Of a stretch of 27,490 bases of DNA, positions 1,918 through 24,095 are shown in pieces. Both the position numbers and the translations under genes were made by a program. The notes under the pieces are model-generated. The model saw nothing but the letters and a program-made list of their open reading frames with translations, did no database searches and had not been told where the DNA came from. This stretch comes from a virus. The stretch is taken from positions 1 to 27,490 of the IMG/VR virus record IMGVR_UViG_3300025159_000682. One strand, written 5' to 3'. How positions within the stretch are numbered: position 1 is the first letter of the stretch; each line of letters opens with the position of its first letter.

Positions 1918-3498
1918 ATGTCGGTTGGACAGATTCTTTCTGGCTCATCGCCCTTCCATTTTCTGCGTCCTGAAGAACGTGAGGAGCATCTTCGCGCAAG
2001 GAACAGGGGCGACGTGGTGCGGGTAGCACAGTTGGAGAAAACTGCCTACGAACGATTCGCTAATTCCCAACGCCAAGCGCTTGCCGACGTAGCTCTGCCC
2101 TCTCGTCCAACAGCGAAGGCTGGAGGGCTTCAGCAGCAACAGATTGATCTAGGCGTCTTGGCTGACCCAAACCAGCTAAGCCAGTTCTATAGTACAGTTG
2201 GGCAAGGAGCCGGCTCAGCCCTGAGTACAATTCTGAGCGGACTTGGCAGAACTCAGACAGGACAAGCCATTGGACAAGGGCTGAGCCGAATCGGAAACGC
2301 TGCGTACCCATCGTTAGAGCGGGCATATGCAGCCGTAGGAAATATCAATAGAGAAGATATCGGGAGGGCGCTTATGGGAGCGTCGTCGTTGTTGGCGGAG
2401 ATTGGAGTAAGTCCCCAGCTTGCAGAGGCTCCTGCAGAGGCTCAAAGTCTGATGCCGCCTCCTGCACCTAGACCTGTTCGGGGGGGCGCGGCCATAGCGA
2501 AGCCGGCTGAGCCGAAAGCCATTCCAGAGGCTCTCTCGCCAACAAGCCGTGCGGCGTTGATGGAGGTGTCTGAGCCAGTTGATCCTGCTGCAATCGCCGC
2601 CGCACAAGGCCGCTCCCCTGCTCAGCAACGCATCATGGACATTCTCGAGCAGCTTACAGGCGCTCGCGGAGGCATCGAACCTCCCGAAAAGGCCAACTTC
2701 TCCGAACGCCTTGCGAGGTTCCTCTCGGCCGCGGCCCTTGGGGCGCAACGAGGCTTGCAGAATGAAGAGGGCGCGACTGCGGCGGTACTTAGCGGCGCTG
2801 GCGGATTTGGTCTTGGAGCCGTGTCGGAGTTGAAACGAGAAGAGCGGCTTCAAGCAGAAAAGTTCAAATCAGCTCAAGAGGAATCGAAGTTCAAGGCGCT
2901 TCAACTCGAAATGCTGGGCGCGACGAATTTGGCCCAGCTTGATGCGAGGGATAGAGCGCTTGTACTGCAGGCTGAGGCAAACGCCATTCGTGCCTATTCA
3001 GCACGAAACGCGGCGATGACGGGTGATGCAAGGCGGCAGGCTTACCAAAGCACAACCATCTTGAATGCTTACAAAACTGAGTTGGAGCGATTTCGCGTCA
3101 ACGATCGCCTCCTCGGCGTGAACGCTTCTGCTGATTCCAAGGCCGCTGCCCGAGCAGCGTCTTTCCAAGCTGCTCCGGAGGTGATGAAGCCGGCAATTCT
3201 CGTTACGATGTTGGTGGAGCAAGGGAATTTGCCAGAACTTCGTCAAGCGGCACTGAATCGCGCGCTCAACGGAGATTCGGCAAAGGGAATCAGCCCTGGC
3301 ATCGACCCAACCGGGGAAACGTATCGGAATCGTCTCGTGCTGCTACGCCAGCAAGGTGCTTTTGAAGAGGCGCGTGCTTTTGAAAAAGAGATCATTGCAG
3401 ATGAAATTGCACGCATGGTGCTTGAAAATCCTAACTTGGCCGAGAACGTGTTTAGGATATACCAACAGGAGCAGCTACAATCCTTGGGTAATAGATGA
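1918..3498 (+). CDS. Middle ejection / internal virion protein, 526 aa
   Basis: Ala/Gln/Glu-rich and apparently helical, with a Pro-rich linker and a short Gly-rich hydrophobic patch. Abuts both neighbours in the ejection cluster. Confidence 0.6.
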   Translation: MSVGQILSGSSPFHFLRPEEREEHLRARNRGDVVRVAQLEKTAYERFANSQRQALADVALPSRPTAKAGGLQQQQIDLGVLADPNQLSQFYSTVGQGAGSALSTILSGLGRTQTGQAIGQGLSRIGNAAYPSLERAYAAVGNINREDIGRALMGASSLLAEIGVSPQLAEAPAEAQSLMPPPAPRPVRGGAAIAKPAEPKAIPEALSPTSRAALMEVSEPVDPAAIAAAQGRSPAQQRIMDILEQLTGARGGIEPPEKANFSERLARFLSAAALGAQRGLQNEEGATAAVLSGAGGFGLGAVSELKREERLQAEKFKSAQEESKFKALQLEMLGATNLAQLDARDRALVLQAEANAIRAYSARNAAMTGDARRQAYQSTTILNAYKTELERFRVNDRLLGVNASADSKAAARAASFQAAPEVMKPAILVTMLVEQGNLPELRQAALNRALNGDSAKGISPGIDPTGETYRNRLVLLRQQGAFEEARAFEKEIIADEIARMVLENPNLAENVFRIYQQEQLQSLGNR

Positions 3499-6400
3499 CT
3501 AAGATCGACATTCCTTTTGACGAGGAAGAACGCTCTCGGCGCCCTCGGTATTCGGCCCTGCCTGAGCTTGAGGCGCTGGGCCAAGCTGCGTATGCCTCTC
3601 CGCCTCGACCGACTTTGGCGGACCAGCTCAGTTTCTCCGAAGGTGCCTTCAAATCATTCATTTACGGCCTTGGCCCTTCCCTTCTCCATATCGACCCATC
3701 ACCTGAGCTTGCTCGTTTTCAGGCCGAACACCCGATTGCCGCGCTCACGTCGGAGGTGGCCGGCACGCTTTTGCCCTATTCAATTCCGTTTCTTGGTCAA
3801 GGTGCGGTGGGGCTCAAGCTTGCATCGAAGCTTCCACTTCTAGGGCGCGTTGTAAAGACGGCCGAGGGGTTAGCGACGGCCGCGCCGGGCCGATCGGTGG
3901 CGTTGAGGGAAATGGCCCGATTCGCACCCCTTGAGGCGGCCCGTGTGGGCGCGACGGCCGCCCTAAACCCCGACAAGACCACCGAGGCGCTTACATCGGC
4001 CATCCTCAACGAGGTGCTCATTGGCGGCATCTCGGGCGGCTTGGCGTCGATTGCAGGGGGTGCGCCGTTCCGGGGACCTGAGATTAGGGGCGAGGCCAAG
4101 ATCCAGGAGAAGTTCCCCGATTGGAACAGGCTTGCCCCGAACCAATTGAAGCTGGCAAAGATCGGTGAATACTTTGTCAAGCATCCGCAGAAGGAACTCG
4201 GCGATTATTACCCTGTACTAAAGGAGGCGGCGGGGGAACTGCGCGATGAAGTGCTCGTTCAAGCGCCACGACCTCGTGTAGAGGCGATGGTCAAACGGCT
4301 CGCGGATGTAGATATTGCGCGAGGCAGCAATAATGCCAAGCGGGCGAACTCGATTTTTGGCGCCGAAGGGAAGCTGAGTCGAGGAATTCACATCCGTAAA
4401 CTCGTCGTTGGCAGTGGTGAGGGAAACTTCAATAAGCAAACTACTCTCGATGAGGTAATGGCACAGGTGGGAGGGTTGACGGACGATCAGCTCAGTCACA
4501 TGCAATTTCCTCGCCATGTCGAAACTCTTACCGAGGGTGGACGAGATAAATTCCTAACGGACTTGGCCGAGATGGGGTTGCAACCTATTAGTCGTGCAGC
4601 CGAAGGCCGTACTGGTGCGGCCATCGGTAATACGGCTTGGATAGCTAAAGAAGCAGATGGTCTCTACGTCGTCGTCAAGCGTGTCGCTAAGCGGCCAAGG
4701 CGCGAGAAGGCGGGAGATCGCTACCTCTTCTTCAAGACTGACAACCCCAAGATGTTTTTTCCTAATCAGGGTGGGCAGCTTGAAAAGACGATGGAAACGT
4801 ACTTCGCCACCGCGCGGGCTATCTCTAAGACGCCGGTCGAGCACCAAACCCCGTTGACAAACTATGCTGATCGTGTGATGAATGTGTTTACGAGAAACAC
4901 TGATTTGCGAGGTGTTCCCGGCGAGCTCAGGTCCGAAGTGGTCGCGCGTGCCTTGGTGAGGGTTCATCCGAGGCTAGAACCCGCCGGAACCGCCATCAAG
5001 GAATTTTCCAAAGTCACGTCGCGGTGGGTTGCTGATGCAAAGAAATTTGTCGCGCCTGGGCTTCATCGGTACTCTGCACACCCACTGGCGCAGCGAACGC
5101 ACCTCTTTGCGCAGGCCCTGTTCAATCGGGCGGGGGCCTTGGCGGAGCAGGAGATTTACGGTCACGAAGTTTTTTCTAAGACTGGAAACCTCTTTTCGAG
5201 TTTGTTTAGGCCGCCGAAACGGGCCGGATCTATCGACGACATGATCGAGAAAGTTTGGGAAAAGGGACCTAAGGCCGTTGAACAAATCAACGAAGCACAT
5301 GTTGCTCAGATGCCCGTTGGAGAAATGGTCGAAGAAGGGTTCGACCCAACAGTGGTCAGTCTTTACAAAAAACTTGGCCCACTTGACGAGAAGATGACGC
5401 AGTACATTGAGGCAACGGATCTTTACGTTGAGGGCGTGACTCCACTTCGACCATTGCCCTTTCATTACCATATTTCTCGTACTTGGAGAGGGTCGAATCG
5501 GTTGCCGGTTTATGCTGAGGGTGATAAGGGTCGTGTTGTGGGGTATGGCTCTGGTTATTCACGAAACCAGGCTTTGCAAGAGGCCGAATCCGTAAAGCGC
5601 ATGGCTGAGAAGCTCGAGCCAGGTAAAAAGTTCGAGTACGATACATCTGGACAGTCAATATTCCAGGTGGGCCATGAGGACGATTTGAAGCACGCCATCA
5701 AGATCAATCCTGGCGACCCACATACACAGGCTTGGTATAAGGCGAGGCGCTTGGCCGTTAGGGAACCTCTTCGGTTCAACGAGCGGACGGGTGCTCTTGG
5801 CTTCACTACGCGATTGACGAAAGATGAGTTCAAGAAGGCCCTTTACGGCAACGTTCATGAAACCTATCGCTACATGGCACAGCGATTGGTGCAAGGTAAA
5901 GCCTTCGACGACTTGTCGATTCTGAAGAAGGAAGCGCCCCTACTGTACAATGACCTAAGTGAATCCATCATGTCCTATGGCGGAGTCAAGGGCCCCTTTG
6001 CTAAGAAGGTTGATGACGCGATCGACAGCCGACTTGAGCCAGTCTTGGGGGGCAATTCCGCGTCGGAGATTGCGCGCAGGATGAATAGGGCAATGTTCGA
6101 TTGGACACTTGGGTTTGGTGATTTAGGCTTTGTCGCGCTGAACGCTGCATCGCCGATTCAAACGGTGTTGCCCGAGATTGCGTGGGTTCTTTCAGCCCCG
6201 CCGGAGCGTCTGGCTCAATACTATGCGACTGGCATGGTTATTGGGAGGGATGGAATGCCACGCAGCGTCGGTTATGTTGAGCCTCTTCGTATTCTCTGGC
6301 GCGCAATCAAGTCTATGGCGAGTCCAGATGAAGATTTGCGCGAAGCCTTCAACAAGGCAGTGAAGTTTCGCGTCATTGATAAGAAGTTCATCGAGGAGTT

Positions 6401-7604
6401 TGCTGGGGCGGCGTCGGAGAGAGCTCTTCGTATCAAAGATGCCTTTTCAGGAAAGACTGGGTTCACCAAATACCTTACTAACCTCATAGAATTTCTCCCG
6501 GCCAAGAGCGAAGAGCTGTCAAGAGGGGTTGCCTTTACATCAGGTTATCATGTTGGGCGAGATTTCTTTGGGCTAAAGGGCGATGCGCTGTTTGAATTTG
6601 CCTCGAACCTTACGAATAGAACGATGTATCTGTATACGACTGCGGATCGTCCGCGGGTCTTGACTGGCGCTGTAGGAACAGCGTTTGGGTTGTTCAAGAA
6701 TTGGCCCATGCACTATCTGGCCAATCTTGGAGTCTATGGTGGCGACGCCATGCGGGGAAACATGGCCCCGCTGCTGTGGGCCGGAATCGGGACTGGCATG
6801 GTGGCGGGGGCGGCCGGCGTACCACTCTATGGTGTAGCCGATGCCTTCTCGCGTTTGGCCAGTGATAAGTCGTTGATGCAGAATCTTTACGACGCTTTTG
6901 GCTACGGCGATGAACCAAATGCCTTCGTAGATGCGCTATACTATGGCGCGCCATCACTTTTGGGTGTAACGTTGCAGGGGCGCGCGGCAGCACCTGGATC
7001 TGCAATGGTCAGGGATCTTTCGCTGTTGTCAGACTTTGTCATGGCAGACCGCTTGCAAGCAGCGTATGAGTTGGCACCCGCCGCTTACGATGCGTGGTTT
7101 ACGACAGGCCGACATCCAGTGAACTCACAGAGCGTTAGGGATCTGTTCGTTCGTGCATTCGCGCCCCGCACGATTATAAAGGCTCTTTCGTTTACAGAGG
7201 ATAACGCCTATCGGAGCTTGCATACTGGGAATAGGCTGATCTCTAACACGACGCTCCCTGAGTATCTCGCTCATGTTTTCGGCTTTACGCCCATTGAGTT
7301 CGACAAATACCAGGATATATCGAACGAACTCTGGACTGACCAAAATAAGAGGCGCGAGGTTGTACAGACTTATGGCGCGGCCCTAGCTGAAGCGTGGAAC
7401 ACACGAGATGCTCGTCTTGGCCAGGATATTATACGAAGGGCGATGCTACAAGCAGCACCGATTTCATCTGTCATGCGCTCAGCTAAGGCTCGGGTGGCTA
7501 AACAAAACGAGGATCTTATCGAACGGCAGTTCTCCACTTATCCGAGGGCGCAACTTCAGAAGAGCTTGCTCGGTCCCGGGGCCTTAATTTCAAGGCAGCC
7601 TTAG
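3495..7604 (+). CDS. Large ejection / internal virion protein, 1369 aa
   Basis: ATGA overlap. Size and last position in the virion module match large podovirus ejection proteins. Hydrophobic Gly-rich segments near the N- and C-termini. No transglycosylase or RNA polymerase motif recognised. Confidence 0.7.
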   Translation: MTKIDIPFDEEERSRRPRYSALPELEALGQAAYASPPRPTLADQLSFSEGAFKSFIYGLGPSLLHIDPSPELARFQAEHPIAALTSEVAGTLLPYSIPFLGQGAVGLKLASKLPLLGRVVKTAEGLATAAPGRSVALREMARFAPLEAARVGATAALNPDKTTEALTSAILNEVLIGGISGGLASIAGGAPFRGPEIRGEAKIQEKFPDWNRLAPNQLKLAKIGEYFVKHPQKELGDYYPVLKEAAGELRDEVLVQAPRPRVEAMVKRLADVDIARGSNNAKRANSIFGAEGKLSRGIHIRKLVVGSGEGNFNKQTTLDEVMAQVGGLTDDQLSHMQFPRHVETLTEGGRDKFLTDLAEMGLQPISRAAEGRTGAAIGNTAWIAKEADGLYVVVKRVAKRPRREKAGDRYLFFKTDNPKMFFPNQGGQLEKTMETYFATARAISKTPVEHQTPLTNYADRVMNVFTRNTDLRGVPGELRSEVVARALVRVHPRLEPAGTAIKEFSKVTSRWVADAKKFVAPGLHRYSAHPLAQRTHLFAQALFNRAGALAEQEIYGHEVFSKTGNLFSSLFRPPKRAGSIDDMIEKVWEKGPKAVEQINEAHVAQMPVGEMVEEGFDPTVVSLYKKLGPLDEKMTQYIEATDLYVEGVTPLRPLPFHYHISRTWRGSNRLPVYAEGDKGRVVGYGSGYSRNQALQEAESVKRMAEKLEPGKKFEYDTSGQSIFQVGHEDDLKHAIKINPGDPHTQAWYKARRLAVREPLRFNERTGALGFTTRLTKDEFKKALYGNVHETYRYMAQRLVQGKAFDDLSILKKEAPLLYNDLSESIMSYGGVKGPFAKKVDDAIDSRLEPVLGGNSASEIARRMNRAMFDWTLGFGDLGFVALNAASPIQTVLPEIAWVLSAPPERLAQYYATGMVIGRDGMPRSVGYVEPLRILWRAIKSMASPDEDLREAFNKAVKFRVIDKKFIEEFAGAASERALRIKDAFSGKTGFTKYLTNLIEFLPAKSEELSRGVAFTSGYHVGRDFFGLKGDALFEFASNLTNRTMYLYTTADRPRVLTGAVGTAFGLFKNWPMHYLANLGVYGGDAMRGNMAPLLWAGIGTGMVAGAAGVPLYGVADAFSRLASDKSLMQNLYDAFGYGDEPNAFVDALYYGAPSLLGVTLQGRAAAPGSAMVRDLSLLSDFVMADRLQAAYELAPAAYDAWFTTGRHPVNSQSVRDLFVRAFAPRTIIKALSFTEDNAYRSLHTGNRLISNTTLPEYLAHVFGFTPIEFDKYQDISNELWTDQNKRREVVQTYGAALAEAWNTRDARLGQDIIRRAMLQAAPISSVMRSAKARVAKQNEDLIERQFSTYPRAQLQKSLLGPGALISRQP

Positions 7605-7851: not shown

Positions 7852-9070
7852 TCGTTATAGTGATGGGGGTGTAAAACATAAAAGGCTCATCCCCTTCGCG
7901 AACGATCCACTGCATTTTTACGAGGCTGTCGAGCAACAGTTGGACAACGTGGAGGGGTACATCAGCAGCGAGCTCTTGTCGCAAGCGGTGCTCTGGCACA
8001 GGTTTAGCCGTTATGCGATATAGGGACTCGACAAGGCTGCGACCCAGCTTGAGCTGGTCATAGAACTCGTTCGCACCGATACTTGAGACTGCGTGTTGCA
8101 TAAAGGATTCAGCCTCAAGGAGGACGGCCTTGGCGATTTTGACCTCCTCTAACGTTATGATCCTCTCATCGCTTCGGGCCGCAGCAAAAATCATACAAAG
8201 TTTGCTAAAATGAGCCATTCGCCGCTCGCAATAGTAAAGCAACCGCGGGTCCTTAGGAGCTGGCGGAAGTCCATCCTCTTTCCATCGCTCTAGTGCATCG
8301 GCCGCGTCTGCCTCCCATTCGTACTCGCCAGTTATGTGAAGCATGGCTTCGAAGTCGTGGATTAGTTGCTTACGGACGTTTTCGTTGAAGTTGGTCTTGG
8401 GCGCGCGATCGACGCCACGCTTCTTGAGTTCGGTAGGTACTACGATACGCTCCTCGCTATAAACCATGACCAGGCGTGAAGGGAACCCACCTTCAAGGGT
8501 TTGATCTGAGAATCTTTCCTTGAGCTGCTTTGGAGTCATTCCGCCTGCCATGACGAGGCAGGGGTTCTCTAGGTGGTTCTCACCTGAGGTTTTGGTCGAG
8601 TAATCGCGGACAATGGGGTTGTCGTAGAGGTCAGCTAAAAACGACATAAACTGCTCGTCGTTTTTCTTCAAAAATACGGCCATCTCATCAATCAACGCAA
8701 CGAGGGCCATATGACGTTCGGAGGTGCCATTCATGTTGACGATTTGCACCGAGCCTTCGAGCTTTTCATAGAAGGCTTCTTTAGTTACGTCGGTGGGAGT
8801 CAACTTGAGTACGGACGCCTTCGATGCAGGAACAAGAATTTGATCCCGCACAATCTTCAACGCCGTGGACTTACCACTGGCCGGTGGGCCTATAAGCAGC
8901 ACGTAGAGATTTGGGTATTGCGTTTGGCCCTCCACGTCCATATAAGCCCGGCGCTGGAGAGCACCGCTTACGGCACAAATTCCTGCCCATAGGCGAAAGA
9001 TTCGTGGGCTCTTGACACCTTCAGTAAATTGAAGGTATGTCGAGATCCAGTCCTCGAGAATACGGCTCAA
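7835..9070 (-). CDS. DUF3987-like / MCM-type AAA+ putative replicative helicase, 411 aa
   Basis: Likely TTG start at 9070 with GAGGAG 7 nt upstream. Walker A GPPASGKS, Walker B LIDEM, SF6/SF3-like LADLYD and GGFPSRL motifs, probable C-terminal winged helix. Confidence 0.7.
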   Translation of the reverse strand: MSRILEDWISTYLQFTEGVKSPRIFRLWAGICAVSGALQRRAYMDVEGQTQYPNLYVLLIGPPASGKSTALKIVRDQILVPASKASVLKLTPTDVTKEAFYEKLEGSVQIVNMNGTSERHMALVALIDEMAVFLKKNDEQFMSFLADLYDNPIVRDYSTKTSGENHLENPCLVMAGGMTPKQLKERFSDQTLEGGFPSRLVMVYSEERIVVPTELKKRGVDRAPKTNFNENVRKQLIHDFEAMLHITGEYEWEADAADALERWKEDGLPPAPKDPRLLYYCERRMAHFSKLCMIFAAARSDERIITLEEVKIAKAVLLEAESFMQHAVSSIGANEFYDQLKLGRSLVESLYRITAKPVPEHRLRQELAADVPLHVVQLLLDSLVKMQWIVREGDEPFMFYTPITITRSGVK

Positions 9071-9081
9071 CTTGCAACTCC

Positions 9082-10569
9082 TCAGATCGCGATGTCGAGA
9101 ATGCTTACCTCTTTGCGGCGCACAAGCGCAGCGTTTGGGGAGCCACGAGGAGCCATATCGTCCTTGCACCAGGTATAGCCAACTTTGATCTCTACGGGAA
9201 CGCGAAGTGCTCGACCGTGGATAAAGATGGGGTTGTTCATAAGAGCAAGAACGCAATCGTGAACTTCATCATCGTTCTCATCGAACTGATAAACGAAGGA
9301 GTCATGGACCTGGTTGAGAACCTGAATACGGCCTTCGTGCAGATCCAGTTCTTGCCAAACCTTCATCAACCCAAGATCTAGGTTATCTACAATAATGGAC
9401 TGTGGGGTGTATGCAACCGCCTCGCGCAAAGTTGCATCGTCATGAAGACGGCCGAAGAAATAGCGCTGCCGACCATAGGAGGTGGTGAGTTTTCCGCTTG
9501 CTTGAATCAGCTCCTGCACGTTGTGATGATAGCGACGGATGCCAGAGAAGACTTCAAAATAGCCGCTCTGAAACTCCTCAGCAATGTCCTTCTCTATTTT
9601 GAGGTGTTTTGCGATCGTGAAGGGTGTGGCAACGTAGTTACTAGCATGTCCACCACGCTTGGCAAGATCTCGTCGAGAGAAATGGCGGTAAAATATCTGT
9701 TCCGCCAGCGCCTTATCCCTTTTGTCATCACCAGTCCATACCACATCCTTCCAGACGAGTCTCGCAGTGAAAGTATGCAAATCCCCGGATTCGCAAGCGG
9801 CGATGTAAGCTTCATCACGAGCCAGATACGCGACTGCGCGGGATTCTGCTTGAGCCAAGTCAATCTCAGCCAGTTTCTTACCTGGGTCAGCAACGAACAT
9901 CCTCCTCATCTTATTAGTAATGTTTTGAAAGTTGGTGCCTGTGCCGAAGGCGTTTTTATTCGACGCCCACCGACCCGTTTCAGTCATCTTCGGGCGGTAG
10001 CCGCAGCGCATTCGCCCGTCAGAATCTACACCAAGTTTGAGGATACCGATGAGCTTGGCTATGTCACGCAGCTTGAGAATGCAATTGATGAAGGGTTCAG
10101 TGTAAAAATAGATCTCGCGCAACTTCTCAAGCGCCTCTCGATCGGTCGTTTGACGCCTTTCGCCCTTGACGTTTTTGTATTGAATTGGGAGCTGCATGAA
10201 ATCGTAAAAAAACGACATCAATTGCTTTGGTGACGCCTGGTTGAGCCCGCTTCCCCAAAGAGCCTCTGCAAGGCGTTGAAGGATTGAATCGACCCTGGTA
10301 AATTGTTTGTCTAGGTTGTAGAGATTCTCAGCACGCGCGGCCTGATCAATCAAAAAGCCCCGCGCCATCATCGCTAGCGCGGGGCCTTGCATAGCAAAGT
10401 CGAAGCGGTAAGTACGTTCTGTTATAGGCATCAACTGCTGGTCAAGAATGCCATTTATCTCGGCAGTGAGACAACAGTCGAGGCCACAATAGATCCAATC
10501 TTGCTCCTCAGGATTGAACTTCGATGTCTCCCCCGGCGCCAGTGATCCAGTGTTGATTACCTTCGCCAT
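9082..10569 (-). CDS. polA: Family A DNA polymerase, 495 aa, carrying only the ExoIII part of the 3'-5' exonuclease
   Basis: TETGRWAS, motif A DLAQAESR, motif B RDLAKRGGHASNYV, motif C QVHDS. N-terminal WIYCGLDCCLT matches ExoIII (YxxxD). ATG10569 follows a GGGGG RBS. Confidence 0.95.
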   Translation of the reverse strand: MAKVINTGSLAPGETSKFNPEEQDWIYCGLDCCLTAEINGILDQQLMPITERTYRFDFAMQGPALAMMARGFLIDQAARAENLYNLDKQFTRVDSILQRLAEALWGSGLNQASPKQLMSFFYDFMQLPIQYKNVKGERRQTTDREALEKLREIYFYTEPFINCILKLRDIAKLIGILKLGVDSDGRMRCGYRPKMTETGRWASNKNAFGTGTNFQNITNKMRRMFVADPGKKLAEIDLAQAESRAVAYLARDEAYIAACESGDLHTFTARLVWKDVVWTGDDKRDKALAEQIFYRHFSRRDLAKRGGHASNYVATPFTIAKHLKIEKDIAEEFQSGYFEVFSGIRRYHHNVQELIQASGKLTTSYGRQRYFFGRLHDDATLREAVAYTPQSIIVDNLDLGLMKVWQELDLHEGRIQVLNQVHDSFVYQFDENDDEVHDCVLALMNNPIFIHGRALRVPVEIKVGYTWCKDDMAPRGSPNAALVRRKEVSILDIAI

Positions 10570-10891
10570 TGTTAGGCCCCCGTTTGATAATGTAGCGGAA
10601 CTCGACAGGGATCTTAGCAAAAGGAGCCATCTTGAGTAGATAACTCGTAGATGGTCCAATGCCGTGATCTGCGTAAACGACCAAACGCTCGCACCTACGC
10701 ATCACAAGATGTTCGGCATAAGATAGTGCCGTTGGCGCGAGCTTTTGAACGTGCTCATACATAAGGTCGCCGTTGATTGGGACTTCCCCGCGCAGAAAGG
10801 AGTCCCGAAGCACTTTGAGCCTGTATCGTCGCATCAAGCTCTGGTGTGCGGCGGGCGGGCACGAAACGTAGACGACAGGATGGTTAGTCAT
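10508..10891 (-). CDS. Small phage protein of nucleoside-2-deoxyribosyltransferase-like (DUF4406/DUF7768-type) family, 127 aa
   Basis: Pattern VVYVSCP...RDSFLRGEVP...MY...RRCERLVVYADHGIGPS...IPVEFRYI. ATG10891 overlaps the UDG stop; the 3' end overlaps polA by 62 nt. Confidence 0.6.
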   Translation of the reverse strand: MTNHPVVYVSCPPAAHQSLMRRYRLKVLRDSFLRGEVPINGDLMYEHVQKLAPTALSYAEHLVMRRCERLVVYADHGIGPSTSYLLKMAPFAKIPVEFRYIIKRGPNNGEGNQHWITGAGGDIEVQS

Positions 10892-11972
10892 CTTTATCTT
10901 CCATCTTACGTCCACGAGATCGCTCAAGCTTCCAGGCCACCTCGTCGGTGTAGACACTGCCCATGAAATGAAGGTCTTTTGGGAGTTCGGGCTGGATAGC
11001 GTGGTGTTTGATCTGCGTGTCCTCGCGGAAGTTACGTGGAGACATTTTGAAAACTGTGCGAAGCCAAATAGTGTCGTAGACACCACCCTGCATCAGCTTC
11101 GGCACGTCTGACTCAACTATGTGCTTGCACCAGAGGTAAGCAGCCTTCTCTTCCTCGAAGGTCGGCCAATAGTTGTAATTCGGCTTAGTCGTATCATGAA
11201 AAGGTACAACGATGCCGATGGACTTATTCACGGCGAAGCCGATACAGCGCAAGATTCTTGGCCGTCTAGTCTCAATGTCAACGCTAAGGAGTTGGCAATG
11301 TGGCATGTAAGTGGCCTCGAACGTGTACAGGTCTTCGATCGTGGGTGCTATCCACAACTCCCGCTCAGGCCGCCGAATTCCATCGAAGGTTGCGTGGCGT
11401 TTAGCCTTCAATAAGTCCGCGAGGACTGATGTGCGAACTTCATAATTGCGGAGGACGTGTGCGGGATGGAAGGTTGGAACGATTTTAGCGGGCACCAAGG
11501 TAGCGAAGTTGACATATCCTCTGGCCTTAGTAATTTTGGGGATGGTCAAGGTCAGAGCCCACAAGGCCGTATTGCCCATAGGTACAATGACACGAGGCTT
11601 GAACGCCTCCAGCTCGGCCCGAAGTCGATCGAGGCTGTAACAATATTCGGGCCTGACGTATTTGCCAGGCTCTACAGGCGGTAAAGGATAGTCGGCAGGA
11701 AGATCGGATTTACTACAACAGATGTTCCCAACCTTGTTATCTGGCAACTTGAAGTTGAAAACATTCGCAATGAGGGACTCTGACCGAAGAATACCTGCGT
11801 GGTGGAGGAGAGAATTGAACTCTTGACCAGATGAACCAACCAATGGTCGCCCCTGCTCAACCTCATCAATACCTGGAGCTTCGGCAACAAAGGCCATTTC
11901 GTTCGAGACGATTGGGAATTCAGATGGGACGATTGGATCATCTGTTGGTTTTGGCAAGTGCTCATGTGTCAC
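10884..11972 (-). CDS. Family-4-like uracil-DNA glycosylase fused to the N-terminal part (ExoI + ExoII) of a DnaQ-like 3'-5' exonuclease, about 362 aa
   Basis: UDG motifs AEAPG..E..GRPLVG.SG, ANV, PMGNTAL, PTFHPAHVLR. Then SVDIET (ExoI), QGGVYD (ExoII) and EDT....H...PELPKDL. Probable GTG start at 11972. Confidence 0.9.
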   Translation of the reverse strand: MTHEHLPKPTDDPIVPSEFPIVSNEMAFVAEAPGIDEVEQGRPLVGSSGQEFNSLLHHAGILRSESLIANVFNFKLPDNKVGNICCSKSDLPADYPLPPVEPGKYVRPEYCYSLDRLRAELEAFKPRVIVPMGNTALWALTLTIPKITKARGYVNFATLVPAKIVPTFHPAHVLRNYEVRTSVLADLLKAKRHATFDGIRRPERELWIAPTIEDLYTFEATYMPHCQLLSVDIETRRPRILRCIGFAVNKSIGIVVPFHDTTKPNYNYWPTFEEEKAAYLWCKHIVESDVPKLMQGGVYDTIWLRTVFKMSPRNFREDTQIKHHAIQPELPKDLHFMGSVYTDEVAWKLERSRGRKMEDKDD

Positions 11973-13338
11973 GATCGTCACCCTTTTCAAGCTTGTTCAA
12001 CCAAGCTGAGTGGGCCGCCTGCAATGACAGCTCCACACACTCGGGGTTGATATCGGCGCCAAGGATTCGACCAGCACCGCACTGAATACCGGCGACAAGC
12101 GCAGATCCGGCCCCACAGGTGGGGTCGAACAATGCCGTAGACTTATCTATGAGCATCGAGAAGAACTTCGCGAGCATACCAGCTGGTTTTTCAGACAAAT
12201 GGCGCGATTTGGTCTTCTCTAGGGGCCAGGTTACAACGTTTGGTACGGCCCTTACAATCTTGCGGTCGCCCTTGGTGATGAGCAGCGCAGTTTCATAGAC
12301 TTGGCGCGGGCCTCTTTGTGGGTCTGGCAAAATGCCGCGGAGATCAGACTTGAACCAGATCAAAGGAAATGGGTTTACTGTAAGGCCAACTCCCTCAAAT
12401 GCCTCCACCGTCTCAGTGTAGTATTTCATTGAGAACCAAAACATGATGTGAGCATCTGGTTGCAATAGCTTGTCTTGATTCTCAACTAGCGTGGAAAGGA
12501 GCTTGAAATAGACCTCGGGAGTGTCTTCGTACTTTACGGACTCCCAATTGTCTGCCGAACCCTGTTCAGATTCGTTGTGGTAGATGCCGTAAGGGAAATC
12601 ACAGTGTAAAAAGTTGAATCTGTACCCGCCAAATTCCTCACACACCTTCTCGAAACTTTTCTCGATGACCGGAACATGCTGCTGAAATTTTCTCTGGATG
12701 GTCGAACCGGCAGTGATGGCGTTGTCGAAGATTTGATCCATCTCATCTGATTCGAGATCAGTCGCGTGGTCGTCTGGCATCGCGGCCATCATCTTTTGTA
12801 CATCTGCGTCGATTGCGCGGGCTCGGCGCCGCTCAAGAATGTTGTATGCGGCGGAGAAAGTCTCACACCTTTCTAGCTCAATGTCGCCGCGTCGGATAGC
12901 CTCCATGATTTCGAGTCTCTTCACTACGGGTGCGCGTGAGAGGCCGATAGCCTCAGCACACTTATCAATCGTGAATGAAGGATCGAGACCCTTTCGGAAC
13001 TGAAAATACTCATCAACTGCGCCGGCCTCTTCCTGCCATGTAAGGTCGCTGCGCTTGATGTTTTCTTCGAGCTCAATAAGCCTAAGATCGCCTGGCTCCA
13101 TCTCGTCGGAGAACTGACATGGAACGAGCACATCCTCGGTGTAAATCTTTCGTAATGCAAGAAGCCGTCTGTGGCCCGCAACGAGGACATACTCGCGTGT
13201 GATGACGAGAGGATGGATTAGGCCAAGACGGCGAATAGAATCAGCAAGGGAATCTATGTCACGAAAGTTTTTTCTCTGCCTGCCCTCCGATACTACGATC
13301 CGACCCAGCGCAACCTGGTGAAATTCTCCGCTTGTCAA
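11962..13338 (-). CDS. ParB/Srx N-terminal domain + HTH + beta-class N6A/N4C DNA methyltransferase fusion, 458 aa
   Basis: TTG13338 with GAGGAG. ParB motifs GLIHPL and VAGHRRL; HTH TIDKCAEAIGLSRAPVVKRL; motif IV DFPY precedes motif I FDPTCGAGS; H..EKP motif. Confidence 0.88.
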   Translation of the reverse strand: MTSGEFHQVALGRIVVSEGRQRKNFRDIDSLADSIRRLGLIHPLVITREYVLVAGHRRLLALRKIYTEDVLVPCQFSDEMEPGDLRLIELEENIKRSDLTWQEEAGAVDEYFQFRKGLDPSFTIDKCAEAIGLSRAPVVKRLEIMEAIRRGDIELERCETFSAAYNILERRRARAIDADVQKMMAAMPDDHATDLESDEMDQIFDNAITAGSTIQRKFQQHVPVIEKSFEKVCEEFGGYRFNFLHCDFPYGIYHNESEQGSADNWESVKYEDTPEVYFKLLSTLVENQDKLLQPDAHIMFWFSMKYYTETVEAFEGVGLTVNPFPLIWFKSDLRGILPDPQRGPRQVYETALLITKGDRKIVRAVPNVVTWPLEKTKSRHLSEKPAGMLAKFFSMLIDKSTALFDPTCGAGSALVAGIQCGAGRILGADINPECVELSLQAAHSAWLNKLEKGDDRDT

Positions 13339-13528
13339 GACCTGCTCCTCTCGTGTAGCTGTACACAACCAGTTCGTCGCTGATGGCAGTTAGGCGCTGG
13401 CGAGCCTTGTGCCACTCGTCGCGCGTATAAAACTCGGACGTTTCTAGTAGCTCGCCTGGAAGTTTCCAAGTTACTACCCAAGAACCGGCTTCAGTTCTCT
13501 CAACGGCAATGAAGGCGATACGTTCCAT
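13259..13528 (-). CDS. Hypothetical protein, about 89 aa
   Basis: GAGGA RBS before ATG13528 and it fills the gap after a terminator, but it overlaps the methyltransferase start by 80 nt. Confidence 0.4.
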   Translation of the reverse strand: MERIAFIAVERTEAGSWVVTWKLPGELLETSEFYTRDEWHKARQRLTAISDELVVYSYTRGAGLDKRRISPGCAGSDRSIGGQAEKKLS

Positions 13529-13618: not shown

Positions 13619-14065
13619 CTATGCCACCTTGGAAAAGCCCTGAATCCGGGCCAGGTTCACGCTCGGGTCGCGCTGAGCAGGTTCGTGGCCGACATAGACG
13701 TTGACCATCGAGCCGACCGCTTCACTGAGCGCCTGCTTGAACGTCCGCCCCTCGAGGCTGATTCCGCACGCCGCGAGAAAGTCCTTGACGTAGTTGAGCG
13801 CATCCTGATCCTTGACCCAGAAGCTGTGCGTCAGCTTGAGCCCTTTGATCTCCTTGACCTTGGCAAACTCGCGCAGAGCTTCCGCATCCACGTCAGTACC
13901 CGCGGAGACGATGCCGAAGACCACTTCGATACCCTTGGTCTTCTTCTTCGAGGAGGTAACCTCCTTGAAGCTCTTCATCTGCGCAGTATACGTTCCGATG
14001 GGTTGCGTGACGCGCTGCACGGAGGTTACATCGGTGTTCAGGAGATCTGCAAAGTTGGCACTCAT
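13619..14065 (-). CDS. Single-stranded DNA-binding protein (DUF669-like OB fold), 148 aa
   Basis: P.GTY.A..., FWV...AL..VKDFL.ACG, G..V.V.V.HE pattern. Lies directly after the Sak4-like ATPase, with an AAGGA RBS. Confidence 0.6.
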   Translation of the reverse strand: MSANFADLLNTDVTSVQRVTQPIGTYTAQMKSFKEVTSSKKKTKGIEVVFGIVSAGTDVDAEALREFAKVKEIKGLKLTHSFWVKDQDALNYVKDFLAACGISLEGRTFKQALSEAVGSMVNVYVGHEPAQRDPSVNLARIQGFSKVA

Positions 14066-14984: not shown

Positions 14985-15911
14985 CTACGCCTCTCTGCTG
15001 ATGAGTGGGTTCCACTCTCGTTTAGTGAAGTCTTGTGGCGAGCCAGTAAGCCACTGGTCGCGCGTGGAGGGGTCCTTCGAGCATATATCCCTAAAAGTGC
15101 ATCCTCCCCACTTGTCGCACGACTCAAGGTTCATAGGCCAAAAACCCTTCTCCGCATATTGTTCGGCCATCTTTAGCCACTCACCAGTGTTATCCATCCA
15201 CTCGTGAAGCTGGTTTGGCGTTCGAGTGATAAATAGCCTTACGAAGCGGTTGAAGTTGACCTTTAGCTCGATCCCGTCAATCATGGCTGTACGTGTTCCG
15301 CCGCCCGGCAGGATCGTAGAAGAGCCGAGGATATAGCCGTTGAGCTGGTTGTTGGGGCTGAATCGCTTAGTGAAGTTTTGATCAAGCCCACTCTTCGTGG
15401 ACTTTATGTCTGAGATGATGATGTCACCCTGAAACTTCACAACTCTATCAATGTGACCACACCAGAAATAGGGTGTTCCATCTGGAGATTCGAGTGGGAG
15501 GGCGAATCGAAACGATAGTTCTACTGCTGGCTCACCGTTGCTCAAGATAAGGGTCTCGGCAGGGTCATTGCGGAAGAGGTCTAAGTACCAAATAACCCCT
15601 CTGGCAAGGTTGAAGTGGTTATAAAGCGTATCTCCCGTAGCCCACTGACCCTTTGTGTTGAGGCAAAATCGAACGGTCTGTAGCATTGCGTCGTCGTAGT
15701 CGACTCCCTTTGCACGAAGCCTGTGATACTTCTCGATAGCCTTGTGCACGGCGATGCCAAAGTCTAGTTGAGCCTTTGCTCTCACCGCTACCCACTGGTC
15801 GAGAATCGTGTATTGGTACTTCCGCGGGCATTCCTGAAACAGCTTGAATGAGGTCGAGTCCCATGCGATCTGCAAACGTGGCAGCTTCTCAGAGAACATG
15901 GACTCATCCAT
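14985..15911 (-). CDS. PD-(D/E)XK exonuclease, Cas4/AddB-like, 308 aa
   Basis: ATG15911. CPRKYQY, FG.AVH, GHIDRV...ISDIKS, QL.GY, and C-terminal C.....GC.FRDIC. The four Cys are consistent with an Fe-S cluster. Confidence 0.85.
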   Translation of the reverse strand: MDESMFSEKLPRLQIAWDSTSFKLFQECPRKYQYTILDQWVAVRAKAQLDFGIAVHKAIEKYHRLRAKGVDYDDAMLQTVRFCLNTKGQWATGDTLYNHFNLARGVIWYLDLFRNDPAETLILSNGEPAVELSFRFALPLESPDGTPYFWCGHIDRVVKFQGDIIISDIKSTKSGLDQNFTKRFSPNNQLNGYILGSSTILPGGGTRTAMIDGIELKVNFNRFVRLFITRTPNQLHEWMDNTGEWLKMAEQYAEKGFWPMNLESCDKWGGCTFRDICSKDPSTRDQWLTGSPQDFTKREWNPLISREA

Positions 15912-16221
15912 TGTCGTCGCTCCCGAAGTATTCCTTCTTGAGGATCTCATCAAGACCCTCGACTTGAAGATCAAGAAAATCTTCCATAGAAGTGTCTTTC
16001 TTGATACCCTTGGATGTCTTGACCTTGCGGCCCTGGGTCTTGGCGGTACGGTCTTCCGCGGCGAAGCGGCCGCGTACTTGACGCATCTCTTCAATTAGGC
16101 GAGCTACCTCTGCGTCATTGAGGTCTACTGGGTCCTTAGCAAAGAGTTCATTGATCTTCGCTTTGGAGGCTGCCTCTATTTCTTCGAGGTTTCTAGGATC
16201 GGGGAGCTCTTCGCTTGCCAT
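15904..16221 (-). CDS. Hypothetical protein, 105 aa (helical N-terminus, Lys-rich linker, acidic tail)
   Basis: GGAG RBS, ordinary phage-like composition, 8-nt overlap with the nuclease start. Confidence 0.75.
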   Translation of the reverse strand: MASEELPDPRNLEEIEAASKAKINELFAKDPVDLNDAEVARLIEEMRQVRGRFAAEDRTAKTQGRKVKTSKGIKKDTSMEDFLDLQVEGLDEILKKEYFGSDDNG

Positions 16222-22186: not shown

Positions 22187-22406
22187 TTTTCGATCCTCCC
22201 ACAGCTGCAGCTGCGTCTAGCGCCGAACGAAATCGGCTTGACCACTTGCGCTGGTCTGCTGGTTCAGCTCCGTACTCTTTGGCAAAAACCTCTCTCGACT
22301 CCTTGCCGCCTTCGCCGTGGAAGATCCCTTGACACCAGCAGTCACAATCTGGACCCTTAGCGTAGTGACAGGCATCGCCACAAACTCTGATCTTGGACTT
22401 GCTCAT
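22179..22406 (-). CDS. Small Cys/His metal-binding protein, 75 aa
   Basis: C...C..AKG..CDCWCQG.FHG motif; ATGA overlap with the helicase stop. Confidence 0.7.
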   Translation of the reverse strand: MSKSKIRVCGDACHYAKGPDCDCWCQGIFHGEGGKESREVFAKEYGAEPADQRKWSSRFRSALDAAAAVGGSKNG

Positions 22407-23884
22407 GAGATCCTCCCCGTCGTGTAGATGTACCGCAAATCTTTGCGGGCTCGCGTGATTGCGACGTAGCGTAGGTTGGATTCCTGTTGAATCTGCTCAG
22501 GGCTTGTGGCGTAGCGCGAGGGGATCAAGAACTCATCGAGGAAATGTACCGTATCCCACTCAAGGCCCTTAGCCTTATGAATCGAACTCAAGGTGACGCG
22601 ACCAACAGGGTTATCCTCGAAGAGACGCTCGATACCTTCGCAGATTTGCTCCACCTTAGCCGTCTGGGTCAAACCCCCAATCAAGGCTCGGATAGATTCG
22701 ACCTTATCCTCAAGCATGGTGAGTTGCTGCTCTTTGTCGCGCCCCCCACCGAGGTAGTTGGACTGGTTGACGTAGTAGATATCCAGGGCGTCGAGGACCA
22801 AATCCCGACTCGCCCCCTTCGGCACCTTGAGCTTCTTGATCAGCGTCGTGAGACCTTTTCCAATGTCGCGGCCCCTGACCTGAACGGCGATACCAGCACG
22901 GATGAATGAGAAGGCTGTACGAATCAAAGGGGCCACGTTGCGGCAGAGAATAGATGAACCGGCCGGCAAGTCCTTAGGGCTCCAGGATGCTTGCCTCTCA
23001 ACTGAGCCCTCGATCGCGTCCTTTGCCCAGCGGATGGCGGGGACGATGCGCTGCGCCTCACGAATCACTTCCTTGGAGCAACGAAAGCAAATCGTGAGAG
23101 GAAGCTCGTGTGCATCCCAGGTCGTCTTGATCTTGTCGATACTTGTGTAGTCGCCGCCCCTGAAGGCATAGATGGCTTGATGCCGGTCCCCTACGGCAAT
23201 GATCCGGCCCCCTACCATGTGGTACAGCGCTCCCCTATTCATGGCGCTCACGTCTTGAGCCTCGTCGACGAATACAGTGTCGAACGTGGGAAGGTACTCG
23301 GGAAAGAAGATTGCCGAAAGGTAGATCTGGTCGTCGAAGTCTATGAAGCCCGACTTCAATCCGACCTTCGTACTGAGACGAAGGAGGTCCCGAGCCACGT
23401 TGACATCTCCGTCACGAATGTAGAGGTTGTGCATTTCGGCGAGCTGGGTCCACTCCCCAACTTCGTCTGGGACCAGCGAAAGATCTGGGTAGTCGGGAAC
23501 GATGCCATAAGCCTTGGCGAGACCAACCAGCCGCACCACATCAGGATAGTCGTCGAACTCGAGCCTCATCGTGTCCTCGAGGAGCTTTCGGCACTTGTAA
23601 GCCTTCACGTCCAGCTTGCGAGGAATTCCCTTCATGCAGGCTCGATGACAAAAGGCATTGATTGTGCGAGACTCGCAGTTGAACGGAAGTTTGTCTCCGA
23701 GCGTTTTGGCAATGTCCTTGTTGAAGGCACAGGCCGCGATGGTTTCGAGGCTCGGTAGCTCGTTGGCAGTGACTACCATCGTAGAGGTTTTGCCTGTACC
23801 TGCCAAAGCATTCTGGACAAGCGACACGTTGGGGTGGGACTTGACGAATTGGACAATCTCGTTTTGCTCATCAGTGAGCTGCAT
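22403..23884 (-). CDS. UvrD/Rep-family SF1A DNA helicase, 493 aa
   Basis: ATG23884. ALAGTGKT, FVDEAQD, VGDRHQAIYAFRG, LTICFRCS, SIHKAKGLEWD, YVAITRAR. Confidence 0.95.
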   Translation of the reverse strand: MQLTDEQNEIVQFVKSHPNVSLVQNALAGTGKTSTMVVTANELPSLETIAACAFNKDIAKTLGDKLPFNCESRTINAFCHRACMKGIPRKLDVKAYKCRKLLEDTMRLEFDDYPDVVRLVGLAKAYGIVPDYPDLSLVPDEVGEWTQLAEMHNLYIRDGDVNVARDLLRLSTKVGLKSGFIDFDDQIYLSAIFFPEYLPTFDTVFVDEAQDVSAMNRGALYHMVGGRIIAVGDRHQAIYAFRGGDYTSIDKIKTTWDAHELPLTICFRCSKEVIREAQRIVPAIRWAKDAIEGSVERQASWSPKDLPAGSSILCRNVAPLIRTAFSFIRAGIAVQVRGRDIGKGLTTLIKKLKVPKGASRDLVLDALDIYYVNQSNYLGGGRDKEQQLTMLEDKVESIRALIGGLTQTAKVEQICEGIERLFEDNPVGRVTLSSIHKAKGLEWDTVHFLDEFLIPSRYATSPEQIQQESNLRYVAITRARKDLRYIYTTGRIS

Positions 23885-24095
23885 TTTGTTGCCTTTCTCT
23901 ACGCAGGAGGTTCCAAAATTTTCCGGAGCAGGCAGTTGAACAAAACTGGCTGCGTTCCGGGCGCTTGGTCCTGTATGATCGGCCGCACTCGAGGCATGGT
24001 CCAAAGGATCTGACGGGTTTTGTGTAGTACCATGGCCGGCTGGGGCCTGTAAAGAACTGCCGGCCTGGCCCGGTGTAGTACTTAGAAGTCGCCAT
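23871..24095 (-). CDS. Small zinc-finger protein, 74 aa
   Basis: GAGGTG RBS before ATG24095. CLECG...FCSTAC motif; N-terminal (Y/F)(Y/F)T(G/K)P repeats. Confidence 0.65.
   Translation of the reverse strand: MATSKYYTGPGRQFFTGPSRPWYYTKPVRSFGPCLECGRSYRTKRPERSQFCSTACSGKFWNLLRRERQQNAAH

Follow-up and report, generated by a model that had tools for sequence, protein, structure and literature searches.

The window, a stretch of 27,490 nt from an uncultured soil/groundwater phage (IMG/VR record IMGVR_UViG_3300025159_000682), encodes the uracil-DNA glycosylase (UDG), 3′-5′ exonuclease and family A polymerase domains of a UDG-PolA on two genes, and the cut between them lies inside the proofreading active site. 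Motifs ExoI and ExoII are located on the product of gene A (chain A) and ExoIII on the product of gene B (chain B); neither chain carries a complete DEDD site, in line with the original prediction. The split is real and ancient. We consider it highly probable that it derives from the fission of an ancestral UDG-PolA into two chains which are reassembled in trans, and that the seam between the two genes has become a slot for cargo genes.

Both genes and a small gene between them are encoded on the same strand (Table 1). The public protein cluster of gene A begins six codons downstream of TTG 11990. Gene A matched the Pfam UDG profile with an E value of 1.6e-16, and gene B matched DNA_pol_A (PF00476) with an E value of 5.6e-41. 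ATG 10569 is likely to be the start of gene B, because the 495-aa protein cluster starts there and homologues begin there as well. The middle gene begins with an ATG that overlaps the gene A stop (ATGACTAA) and ends with 62 nt shared with gene B, which is read in a frame different from that of gene A. The two genes matched adjacent stretches of one polymerase profile, phrog_17, gene A at positions 481-788 and gene B at positions 807-1237. Gene A ends in a stop codon at 10884-10886 and gene B has its own start at 10569 in a different frame, with another gene between them, all of which distinguishes the locus from a single-chain UDG-PolA. The coordinates originally given for DIET, YD, YCGLD and the stop of gene A matched exactly, and the ORF positions confirmed that ExoIII lies on a separate polA ORF in another frame with a third gene in between. 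Scanning of 8900-12200 for promoters and terminators yielded counts no higher than in shuffles.

Table 1. Positions of genes, domains and motifs of the divided polymerase in the window
Feature	Position	Strand	Remarks
Gene A, UDG and N-terminal two-thirds of the 3′-5′ exonuclease domain	10884-11990	minus	368 aa from TTG 11990
Putative family-4 UDG domain, about residues 25-199	11394-11918	minus	motif A AEAPG, Asn76, motif B HPA; alignments to TM0511 and T. thermophilus UDG
ExoI motif DIET (D238, E240)	11268-11279	minus	D238, E240 invariant in 63 sequences
ExoII motif QGGVYD (D306)	11073-11090	minus	Q301, D306 invariant in 63 sequences; YD at 11073-11078
Disordered C-terminal tail of chain A and stop codon	10884-10922	minus	pLDDT 41-60 and tail alignment
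Stop codon TAA of gene A	10884-10886	minus	
Middle (cargo) gene, putative DUF7768-type protein, nucleoside 2-deoxyribosyltransferase-like fold	10508-10891	minus	127 aa
Gene B, ExoIII-bearing helices and complete family A polymerase	9082-10569	minus	495 aa
N-terminal extension of chain B, residues 1-18	10516-10569	minus	consensus M-x-x-I-I-x-T-x-x-L; alignments
Three C-terminal exonuclease-domain helices on chain B, residues 20-70	10360-10512	minus	helices 20-45, 48-59, 61-70
ExoIII motif YCGLD	10477-10491	minus	Y27, D31 invariant in 60 sequences

Within the UDG domain of chain A, residues E37, N76, H175 and P176 were invariant or nearly so among 63 homologues, and the fold matched TM0511 and the T. 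thermophilus UDG with a TM score (by target) of 0.75. Family-4 UDGs carry GE(A/G)PG as motif A and HP(S/A) as motif B, against AEAPG and HPA here; their uracil-stacking Phe (PFVG) is Leu in the window and Phe in the clade consensus. The full set of four 4Fe-4S cysteines of family-4 UDGs was absent, no N-terminal Cys pair being visible in alignments judged by eye, and only one Cys column of chain A reached consensus in the 63 sequences. Of the 173 positions of the Pfam exonuclease profile PF01612, chain A matched only 20-129, while the match of an unsplit relative extended to position 165. The AlphaFold model of chain A (pLDDT 91) showed the full five-strand sheet without the ExoIII helix, and Foldseek matched it to family-4 UDGs and, over 364 columns, to the UDG-PolA of phiLo (9QHS). 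The tail of chain A always ends with K-[KR]-[DE]-[DE] in relatives, followed directly by the stop. One relative's chain A (P0230, 661 aa) carries an apparent intein within ExoII.

Chain B is a family A polymerase, with residues D237, Q240, E242, R300, K304, Y312, H422 and D423 of motifs A (D..Q.E), B (R...K...[FYL]G..YG) and C (HD) invariant or nearly so in 60 sequences. Its best match among solved structures was M. smegmatis Pol I (E 1e-25). The AlphaFold model (pLDDT 93.6) opens with three helices, and residues 1-18 ahead of them are missing from unsplit relatives. The residue equivalent to F762 is His in chain B; a literature search retrieved no paper describing His at this position.

All DEDDy residues are invariant, i.e. 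D238, E240 and D306 in chain A (n=63) and Y27 and D31 in chain B (n=60), but they are distributed over two polypeptides, whereas the standard exonuclease domain of PolA has ExoI (DxE), ExoII ((N/Q)x2-3(F/Y)D) and ExoIII (Yx3D) on a single one. When both chains were modelled together, the complex reached an ipSAE of 0.86, the best control giving 0.00; of 80 solved complexes 58 attained this mark, of 110 mismatched pairs 2. Contact agreement between runs was at least 89% and partner pLDDT at least 84. The predicted interface comprises 216-228 confident contacts, and those with the lowest error join residues 28-42 of chain B to residues 236, 252-261, 299 and 325-331 of chain A. In the model the ExoIII helix packs on the sheet of chain A, against the strands bearing ExoI and ExoII, as had been expected of a helix completing the DnaQ fold; residues 1-8 of chain B also lie within the predicted interface, and the UDG domain is set against the polymerase. 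This result may reflect memory of single-chain PolA folds, because single-chain PolA structures have already been solved. Together with the split at a single alignment column and the invariant residues, the predicted interface supports the two-chain UDG-Exo/Exo-Pol enzyme originally proposed, with a site completed in trans. We infer that the chains assemble physically and are active in trans; most likely, proofreading would work only when both proteins dock. Constitutive assembly of the two chains is a simpler assumption than a regulatory switching-on of proofreading. The UDG domain may serve in excision or in processivity.

The search was extended to relatives by a profile scan of IMG/VR, an earlier scan with a single protein having given one locus, which was unsplit. 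All 73 loci containing both halves were cut at the same place, and both genes adjoin or stay near each other in every one of them. The cultured Caulobacter phage Kuura, in which gp29 corresponds to chain A and gp26 to chain B, and loci L007 and L008 are cut at the same alignment column as the window. Since the same cut is present in 73/73 related loci and in the isolate Kuura, the split is far beyond chance. Stand-alone A chains of 308-411 aa made up 147 of the 150 best representatives at 50% identity, polymerase-fused A chains none of them, and the best 120 matches of each half were split forms. In all, 661 representatives matched with E values up to 1e-30. P0150 (512 aa) and P0230 were considered as fused forms and rejected, neither matching the polymerase half. 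Unsplit single-chain relatives of 780-810 aa were found at about 30% identity. In a FastTree phylogeny all split forms fall on one side of a branch with a support of 100; with only three unsplit outgroups the tree is suggestive of a single origin but does not prove it. The survey of relatives suggested at the outset thus found the same breakpoint. The case had been treated as singular, but in a whole clade of environmental phages, the cultured Kuura among them, a polymerase split in this way is the rule.

The middle gene, passed over in the original prediction, proved to be one of many interchangeable inserts. The seam was without insert in 14 of the 73 loci, where stop and start overlap, and held one to seven varied cargo genes in the other 59; the distance between genes A and B ranges from -7 to 1801 nt, with up to seven unrelated genes inside. 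The cargo ORFs fall into 49 unrelated homology groups, which include HNH nucleases, but most cargo is non-nuclease. DUF7768 is the commonest family (14/59 cargo-bearing loci) and occurs in deep as well as nested branches of the tree; the related DUF1937 accounts for one other homology group (3 ORFs) and turned up in two additional contexts, and PRA-PH/MazG-like, YfbR-like and Pribosyltran proteins are further cargo connected with nucleotide metabolism. The middle gene of the window matched Pfam DUF7768 (PF24963) over profile positions 1-97 of 98 with an E value of 0.019 and 15.7 bits, below the cut-off of 26. Its assignment is based on a pairwise E value of 2e-9 to a bona fide DUF7768 cargo protein scoring 107 bits and on feature and structure matches in the ESM Atlas (TM 0.72-0.79). 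A word-based homologue search with the middle gene returned only its own cluster, and no paper describing DUF7768 was found in the literature searched. An SD-like 4-mer was present in the tail codons of chain A at 43 of 60 distinct junctions, compared with 14 of 45 gene B 3′ ends as control, and the SD ahead of the cargo gene in the window is weak (GGAAGA). A selective effect on these codons as such is indistinguishable from one on the K-[KR]-[DE]-[DE] peptide that they encode.

These data bear on several other explanations of the locus. The two chains might be uncoupled, chain A acting as an independent UDG to which an inactive exonuclease remnant is attached, and chain B as an exonuclease-less polymerase stabilised by three leftover helices. 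Each chain does fold confidently alone in silico, and CCPol, as summarised in PMC10201439, likewise retains only three exonuclease helices and partners with another protein. Invariance of ExoI and ExoII in A and of the ExoIII Y and D in B, in 60 or more sequences at 45-50% identity, would however be unexpected for dead remnants, and the proximity of both genes in all loci and the large predicted interface also make this improbable. Alternatively, the DUF7768 protein might be no passenger but a functional third component of the replicase which, for instance, joins the UDG domain in surveying bases or the nucleotide pool. Its frequency among the cargo, the recurrence of DUF1937, the presence of DUF7768 in deep and nested branches and the other cargo touching nucleotide metabolism would fit such a function, but the absence of cargo from 14 loci and its spread over 49 unrelated groups, HNH nucleases included, fit passengers, and we regard a third partner as unlikely. 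A related idea, which we put forward tentatively and with rather low confidence, is that the seam is an expression slot with the K-[KR]-[DE]-[DE] tail as ribosome-binding site, and that DUF7768/DUF1937 cargo (here 10508-10891) cooperates with the UDG domain in handling bases or nucleotide pools, e.g. in surveillance of uracil or modified bases at the fork.

A single polypeptide could also be restored by a self-splicing intron containing the middle ORF, by protein trans-splicing, by a programmed frameshift or by ribosomal bypass. Introns and inteins are frequent in phage polymerase genes, HNH endonuclease genes are among the seam cargo, and the apparent intein in one relative points in the same direction. 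Yet an Rfam scan of 9000-12100 with E values up to 10 gave only chance-level matches and no group I or group II intron, the gap varies widely in length and content, and the 14 gapless loci still consist of two ORFs. The extra residues at the junction, about 12 in A and 18 in B, are too short for intein halves; no Hint-type Pfam match was obtained with the window chains, and no Cys, Ser or Thr nucleophile follows the extension of chain B. Chain A moreover always stops at the same K-[KR]-[DE]-[DE], and a strain variant at 10885, which turns the stop TAA into TGA, retains it. Restoration is thus very improbable, in agreement with the lower rank that splicing or bypass had been given from the start. 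In favour of an artefact, be it faulty assembly or sequencing or a gene newly broken into a pseudogene in this one contig, it may be said that the window is a metagenomic fragment with a completeness of about 56%. Contigs of four runs from four studies nevertheless span the junction without indels, at least 11 runs contain half or more of the stretch, none of those listed being RNA, and the cut recurs in the genome of an isolate and in hundreds of diverged relatives. The artefact reading, to which we give practically no credence, is refuted as far as sequence data reach, and the split is natural, as had been supposed.

According to the fission reading, which we prefer, the ancestor would have been a single-chain UDG-exonuclease-polymerase that underwent one old gene fission. 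The cut would have fallen in a surface loop, with the last strand and helices bearing ExoI and ExoII on one side and the ExoIII helix on the other. Chain A would thereby have kept the UDG domain, the whole β-sheet of the DnaQ fold, ExoI and ExoII, while chain B would join to the polymerase the three C-terminal exonuclease helices that carry ExoIII and, ahead of these, a short and new extension at the N-terminus. Non-covalent docking of the ExoIII helix onto the sheet of chain A would rebuild the two-metal proofreading site and bring UDG domain and polymerase up against each other in the way of single-chain UDG-PolAs. The co-oriented genes A and B would be translationally coupled; the chain A tail would have a role in this coupling, the purine-rich final codons of gene A doubling as a ribosome-binding site for the next gene. 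The seam has turned into a slot that is sometimes empty but more often holds one to seven small genes with fast turnover, here the DUF7768 gene.

Single-chain UDG-PolAs are known from phages of the N4-like cluster 17 and SPO1/SP-10/SP-15 type (Czernecki et al. 2023, PMC10201439), and the phiLo polymerase (PDB 9QHS) is a solved example of such an enzyme. Such enzymes share with the window the domain order of UDG (of family 4, putatively so in the window), 3′-5′ exonuclease and polymerase, and their models place the UDG against the polymerase, as do the contacts predicted here; the window differs in having two genes and proteins, a cut between ExoII and ExoIII and, as in most relatives, foreign genes in the gap. 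Fission between exo and pol in S-SBP1-like, T7-like cyanophages was reported as the first split in PolAs (Czernecki et al. 2023, PMC10201439). There too two neighbouring genes specify a family A polymerase whose parts are predicted to come together as in its uninterrupted relative, but the cut, by the description in that paper, parts the exo domain from the pol domain and goes back to a recent frameshift of 1 nt, the two genes overlapping and having no cargo between them, whereas the cut described here is inside the exonuclease active site, old, widespread, in the UDG-PolA lineage and associated with a cargo slot. CCPol-MP of staphylococcal SCC elements, as summarised in PMC10201439, starts in the same way as chain B; its partner MP is an unrelated β-barrel and the exonuclease is lost, whereas chain A is the true missing exonuclease part with conserved catalytic residues. 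In LUZ24-like Pseudomonas phages (Bruynoghevirus) PolA is likewise fragmented, with the fragments set apart by many unrelated genes, LUZ24 gp25 being annotated as 'DNA polymerase exonuclease subunit' and gp34 as 'part II', along with gp36. LUZ24 was rejected as a split of the same kind, since gp25 (169 aa) is a complete exonuclease subunit with ExoI (DLE), ExoII (HNILDYD) and ExoIII (YCLQD) on one chain; it also lacks a UDG domain. The window thus departs from the S-SBP1/LUZ24 type, with its cut at the exo/pol border and a complete exonuclease subunit, in carrying ExoIII on the polymerase chain. Phage 'genes in pieces', such as nrdA-a/mobE/nrdA-b of Aeh1 and the split gp43 of T4-related phages, are divided by free-standing endonuclease genes. 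They resemble the present case in that an essential replication enzyme is encoded by two genes flanking mobile or foreign ORFs, HNH genes forming part of the cargo in the present clade, but here the split persists insert-free in 14 loci and the cargo is mostly non-nuclease. No paper describing a PolA cut between ExoII and ExoIII was found in the literature searched, and the split goes unmentioned in the paper on Kuura.

The annotation of chain A, which Kuura and many metagenome records list as 'hypothetical protein' or 'uracil-DNA glycosylase', is thereby corrected. The locus is a natural system in which the assembly of split family A polymerases can be tested; its defined cut point accepts new termini and is useful for the engineering of split polymerases. 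The seam is a hot spot of gain and loss of small phage genes beside the replicase, and if it is an expression slot, any gene landing there would be co-produced with the replicase. In the published view PolA splits are rare and located at the exo/pol border; a cut within the active site extends this view, indicating that the ligands of a two-metal proofreading site can persist on two separate proteins over long evolutionary time.

The window is a virus record from IMG/VR, 27,490 bases long and about 56% complete, with a replication module on its minus strand that includes genes A and B. Gene A encodes a UDG domain with the ExoI and ExoII motifs, gene B encodes ExoIII and the family A polymerase (PolA), and a middle gene lies between them. 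The two proteins covered adjoining stretches of the PHROG polymerase profile phrog_17 (positions 481-788 by A and 807-1237 by B), indicating that they are neighbouring parts of one ancestral protein. The ATG listed for gene B is most likely its start, because a 495-aa public cluster starts there and homologues begin there. On re-reading of the window, DIET, YD, YCGLD and the gene A stop were found exactly where the original prediction had placed them.

Features of the replication module in the window
Feature	Position	Strand	Remarks
Helicase	22403-24004	-
PD-(D/E)XK-type exonuclease	14985-16094	-
SSB-like gene	13619-14065	-
ParB-N domain + N6/N4 DNA methylase fusion	11962-13368	-	directly upstream of gene A, overlapping its start
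Gene A	10884-11990	-	Pfam UDG, E 1.6e-16
ExoI motif DIET	11268-11279	-	chain A
ExoII YD	11073-11078	-	chain A
Gene A stop	10884-10886	-	end of UDG-Exo ORF
Middle gene	10508-10891	-	127 codons; ATG overlaps A stop (ATGACTAA); 3' end overlaps B by 62 nt
Gene B	start ATG 10569	-	Pfam DNA_pol_A, E 5.6e-41
ExoIII motif YCGLD	10477-10491	-	chain B
DUF3987 primase/helicase-like gene	7835 to ~9100	-

The ParB-N/methylase fusion was also found upstream in the relatives L006 and L007 and in Mel-JY34 and ctMlz233, phages with an unsplit single-chain enzyme. A 1369-aa ORF on the plus strand (3495-7604), adjoined by a DNA-ejection-protein homologue (1015-1917), matched PHROG only faintly, the matched proteins being very large and uncharacterised; its product is probably an ejection protein or an internal virion protein, from a podovirus resembling the cultured Caulobacter phage Kuura.

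AlphaFold models of the single chains, with 60-63 homologues as input, were confident (pLDDT 91.2 for chain A and 93.6 for chain B). In the chain A model, the UDG domain and a linker are followed by the DnaQ fold, of which all five strands of the sheet and the first helices are present; ExoI is on strand 235-242, ExoII at 298-306 and a DT strand at 321-324, and the chain ends in a disordered tail of 12 residues. Chain B was modelled as an 18-residue extension, helices 20-45, 48-59 and 61-70 and then the polymerase, with ExoIII (Y27, D31) on the first helix. Chain A reached only position 129 of 173 in the Pfam exonuclease profile, compared with 165 for the unsplit enzyme of Microcystis phage Mel-JY34. 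Motif placement and this partial coverage bear out the claim that neither chain holds a complete DEDDy site.

Aligned homologues had 35-53% identity to the proteins of the window. D238 and E240 (ExoI), Q301 and D306 (ExoII) and D324 were invariant among 63 A chains, as were Y27 and D31 (ExoIII) among 60 B chains; UDG residues E37, N76, H175 and P176 in the former and polymerase motifs A, B and C in the latter were invariant or nearly so. Invariance of the catalytic residues at this level of identity indicates that a site shared by two proteins is under purifying selection, and contradicts a reading of the genes as dead remnants.

In the window, the family-4 UDG motif PFVG has Leu for its uracil-stacking Phe (GRPLVG, 11820-11837), and the motif GEAPG has Ala for its first Gly (AEAPG, 11873-11887), the clade consensus being F and G, respectively; the N-terminal Fe-S cysteine pair of family-4 UDGs was absent clade-wide. 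The position of Klenow Phe762 is taken as Phe, Tyr or Leu in the field. Its equivalent in chain B (residues 304-312, KRGGHASNY, 9634-9660) is His, judged by the helix spacing R-x3-K-x3-H-x3-Y; this His was invariant in the 60 split B chains and present in the three unsplit relatives, and a literature search found no description of a His762 PolA. P0230, the 661-aa A chain of a relative, has ExoII QNG followed by CVPGDTEVLT (about residues 297-310), a stretch resembling the beginning of an intein that interrupts ExoII. Some B chains of 786-824 aa (P0306, P0367 and an 819-aa gene beside P0049) matched DNA_pol_A in two pieces and probably also contain inserts.

In prediction of the complex, three controls gave an ipSAE of 0.00 at best and the A-B pair 0.86 (median of three runs), a mark attained in 58 of 80 solved complexes and in 2 of 110 mismatched pairs. 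Contact agreement between runs was at least 89% and partner pLDDT at least 84. The lowest-error contacts joined B 28-42, the ExoIII helix, to A 236, 252-261, 299 and 325-331, i.e. the ExoI strand and the one next to it, ExoII and the DT strand, so that in the model the ExoIII helix packs on the ExoI/ExoII strands. Further contacts were predicted from B residues 1-8 and polymerase loops 190-209 and 367-377, to A residues including 161, 183-187 and 207-217 on the UDG side. The high score may reflect memory of solved single-chain PolA folds; the model shows that A and B can be arranged like an uninterrupted enzyme, which is a fit of the chains and not proof of binding. The main inference of the original prediction, a two-chain UDG-Exo/Exo-Pol enzyme, is supported computationally.

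Assembly error, an intervening element and recoding were considered as alternative accounts of the split. At least 11 public runs, with no RNA run among those listed, contained 50% or more of the junction stretch, and contigs of four independent runs from four studies (soil, groundwater and sediment), compared with 9000-12100, had no insertions, deletions or joints across the junction, so that the split is not a product of misassembly. Two of the four metagenome assemblies had 10885 T>C, which converts TAA to TGA on the coding strand and thus retains the gene A stop; the same variant changes Asn3 to Asp in the overlapping middle gene. Splicing and ribosomal bypass had been considered less likely, and this held. 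No Rfam intron matched positions 9000-12100 of the window (E up to 10), relatives without cargo (ORFs between A and B) remain two ORFs, and inserts of seven genes are not introns. Kilobases of translated cargo make frameshifting or bypass impossible, and a single conserved stop terminates A in every lineage. For a split intein, residues at the seam between A and B are far too few and Hint features are absent.

The two-gene arrangement was found to be widespread. In Kuura, the nearest cultured relative (about 40% identity), two small ORFs separate the same pair of genes; chain A is annotated there as a 'hypothetical protein', and the split goes unmentioned in the Kuura paper. Among 1.84 billion representatives, searched exhaustively with HMMER, 661 proteins had E values up to 1e-30. 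Of the best 150, 147 were 308-411 aa long and ended at the end of chain A, and none of the three exceptions is a polymerase fusion. Word-based searches with the A and B halves were both consistent with split forms. A profile scan of IMG/VR found at least 571 relatives; both halves were present in 73 of the best 80 loci, and all 73 were split. An alignment that included unsplit relatives placed the cut of the window, of Kuura and of two metagenome loci at one column, the shared breakpoint for which a survey had been proposed. Single-chain forms (780-810 aa, about 30% identity) were Mel-JY34, ctMlz233 and one IMG/VR contig. In a FastTree of 58 sequences, every split form fell to the same side of a branch supported at 100, which fits one old fission, as judged by a quick tree method with only three outgroups.

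In the alignment, split enzymes gained about 8-12 residues at the A end and about 14-18 at the B start relative to unsplit ones. The B extension follows the clade-wide pattern M-x-x-I-I-x-T-x-x-L. The A tail almost always reads K-[KR]-[DE]-[DE] with the stop immediately after, and its codons (AAG AAG/AGG GAG/GAT GA-) form a Shine-Dalgarno (SD)-like run. Of 60 distinct junctions, 43 had an SD-like 4-mer in the final 18 nt of gene A, compared with 14 of 45 gene B ends, and an ATG lay -8 to +12 nt from the gene A stop in 53 of the 60; the run in the window, GGAAGA, is a weak SD. The gene following A may be translationally coupled to it, the SD signal being inseparable from selection on the tail peptide.

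The gap between the genes held no insert in 14 of the 73 loci (stop and start overlapping or at most 22 nt apart) and 1-7 ORFs in the other 59, with lengths up to 1.8 kb; six genes were found in one Logan contig. The 93 cargo ORFs of at least 60 aa formed 49 homology groups. DUF7768 was commonest (14 loci; representative E 5e-31), followed by KTSC-domain cargo (10 ORFs of about 107 aa with KTSC C-terminal, e.g. L055:8019-8342); DUF3102, HNH endonucleases (three groups), DUF1937, an FkbM methyltransferase, and PRA-PH/MazG-like and phosphoribosyltransferase domains were also common. Cargo state changed at least seven times on the tree; cargo was present on all the deep branches (Kuura, the window, L064 and L036), and forms lacking it were nested. 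The middle gene of the window matched Pfam DUF7768 over the full profile at E 0.019 (below the Pfam cut-off), a bona fide member at pairwise E 2e-9 and Atlas structures at TM 0.72-0.79, and by these matches is probably a diverged DUF7768 member. It enters gene B in another frame (10508-10569), which adds 20 residues at its C-terminus; this overlap is a few bases only in other loci that carry DUF7768. Most simply, it is a passenger; that its product is a working partner of the replicase is the less likely reading.

UDG-PolAs have been described as single chains (Czernecki et al. 2023, PMC10201439). Among solved structures, the nearest one to cover chain A is phiLo UDG-PolA (9QHS). The exo/pol gene fission of S-SBP1-like T7-like cyanophages was reported as the first split in PolAs; that cut divides the exo domain from the pol domain, arose from a 1-nt frameshift and has no insert (PMC10201439). 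The 169-aa LUZ24 'DNA polymerase exonuclease subunit', when translated, contained ExoI, ExoII and ExoIII, so that its active site is undivided, whereas that of the window is spread across A and B. Split polymerases have been reported in OM43 phages and a marine cyanophage lineage, with no cut location given. CCPol resembles chain B in starting with three exonuclease helices, but its partner is an unrelated protein. A literature search found no description of a PolA cut between ExoII and ExoIII. The case of the window is one member of a large, old two-gene UDG-PolA lineage, which differs from known split PolAs in cut position, in age and spread and in its cargo slot, and Kuura provides a cultured system for bench work on the predicted A-B binding and trans-assembled proofreading.
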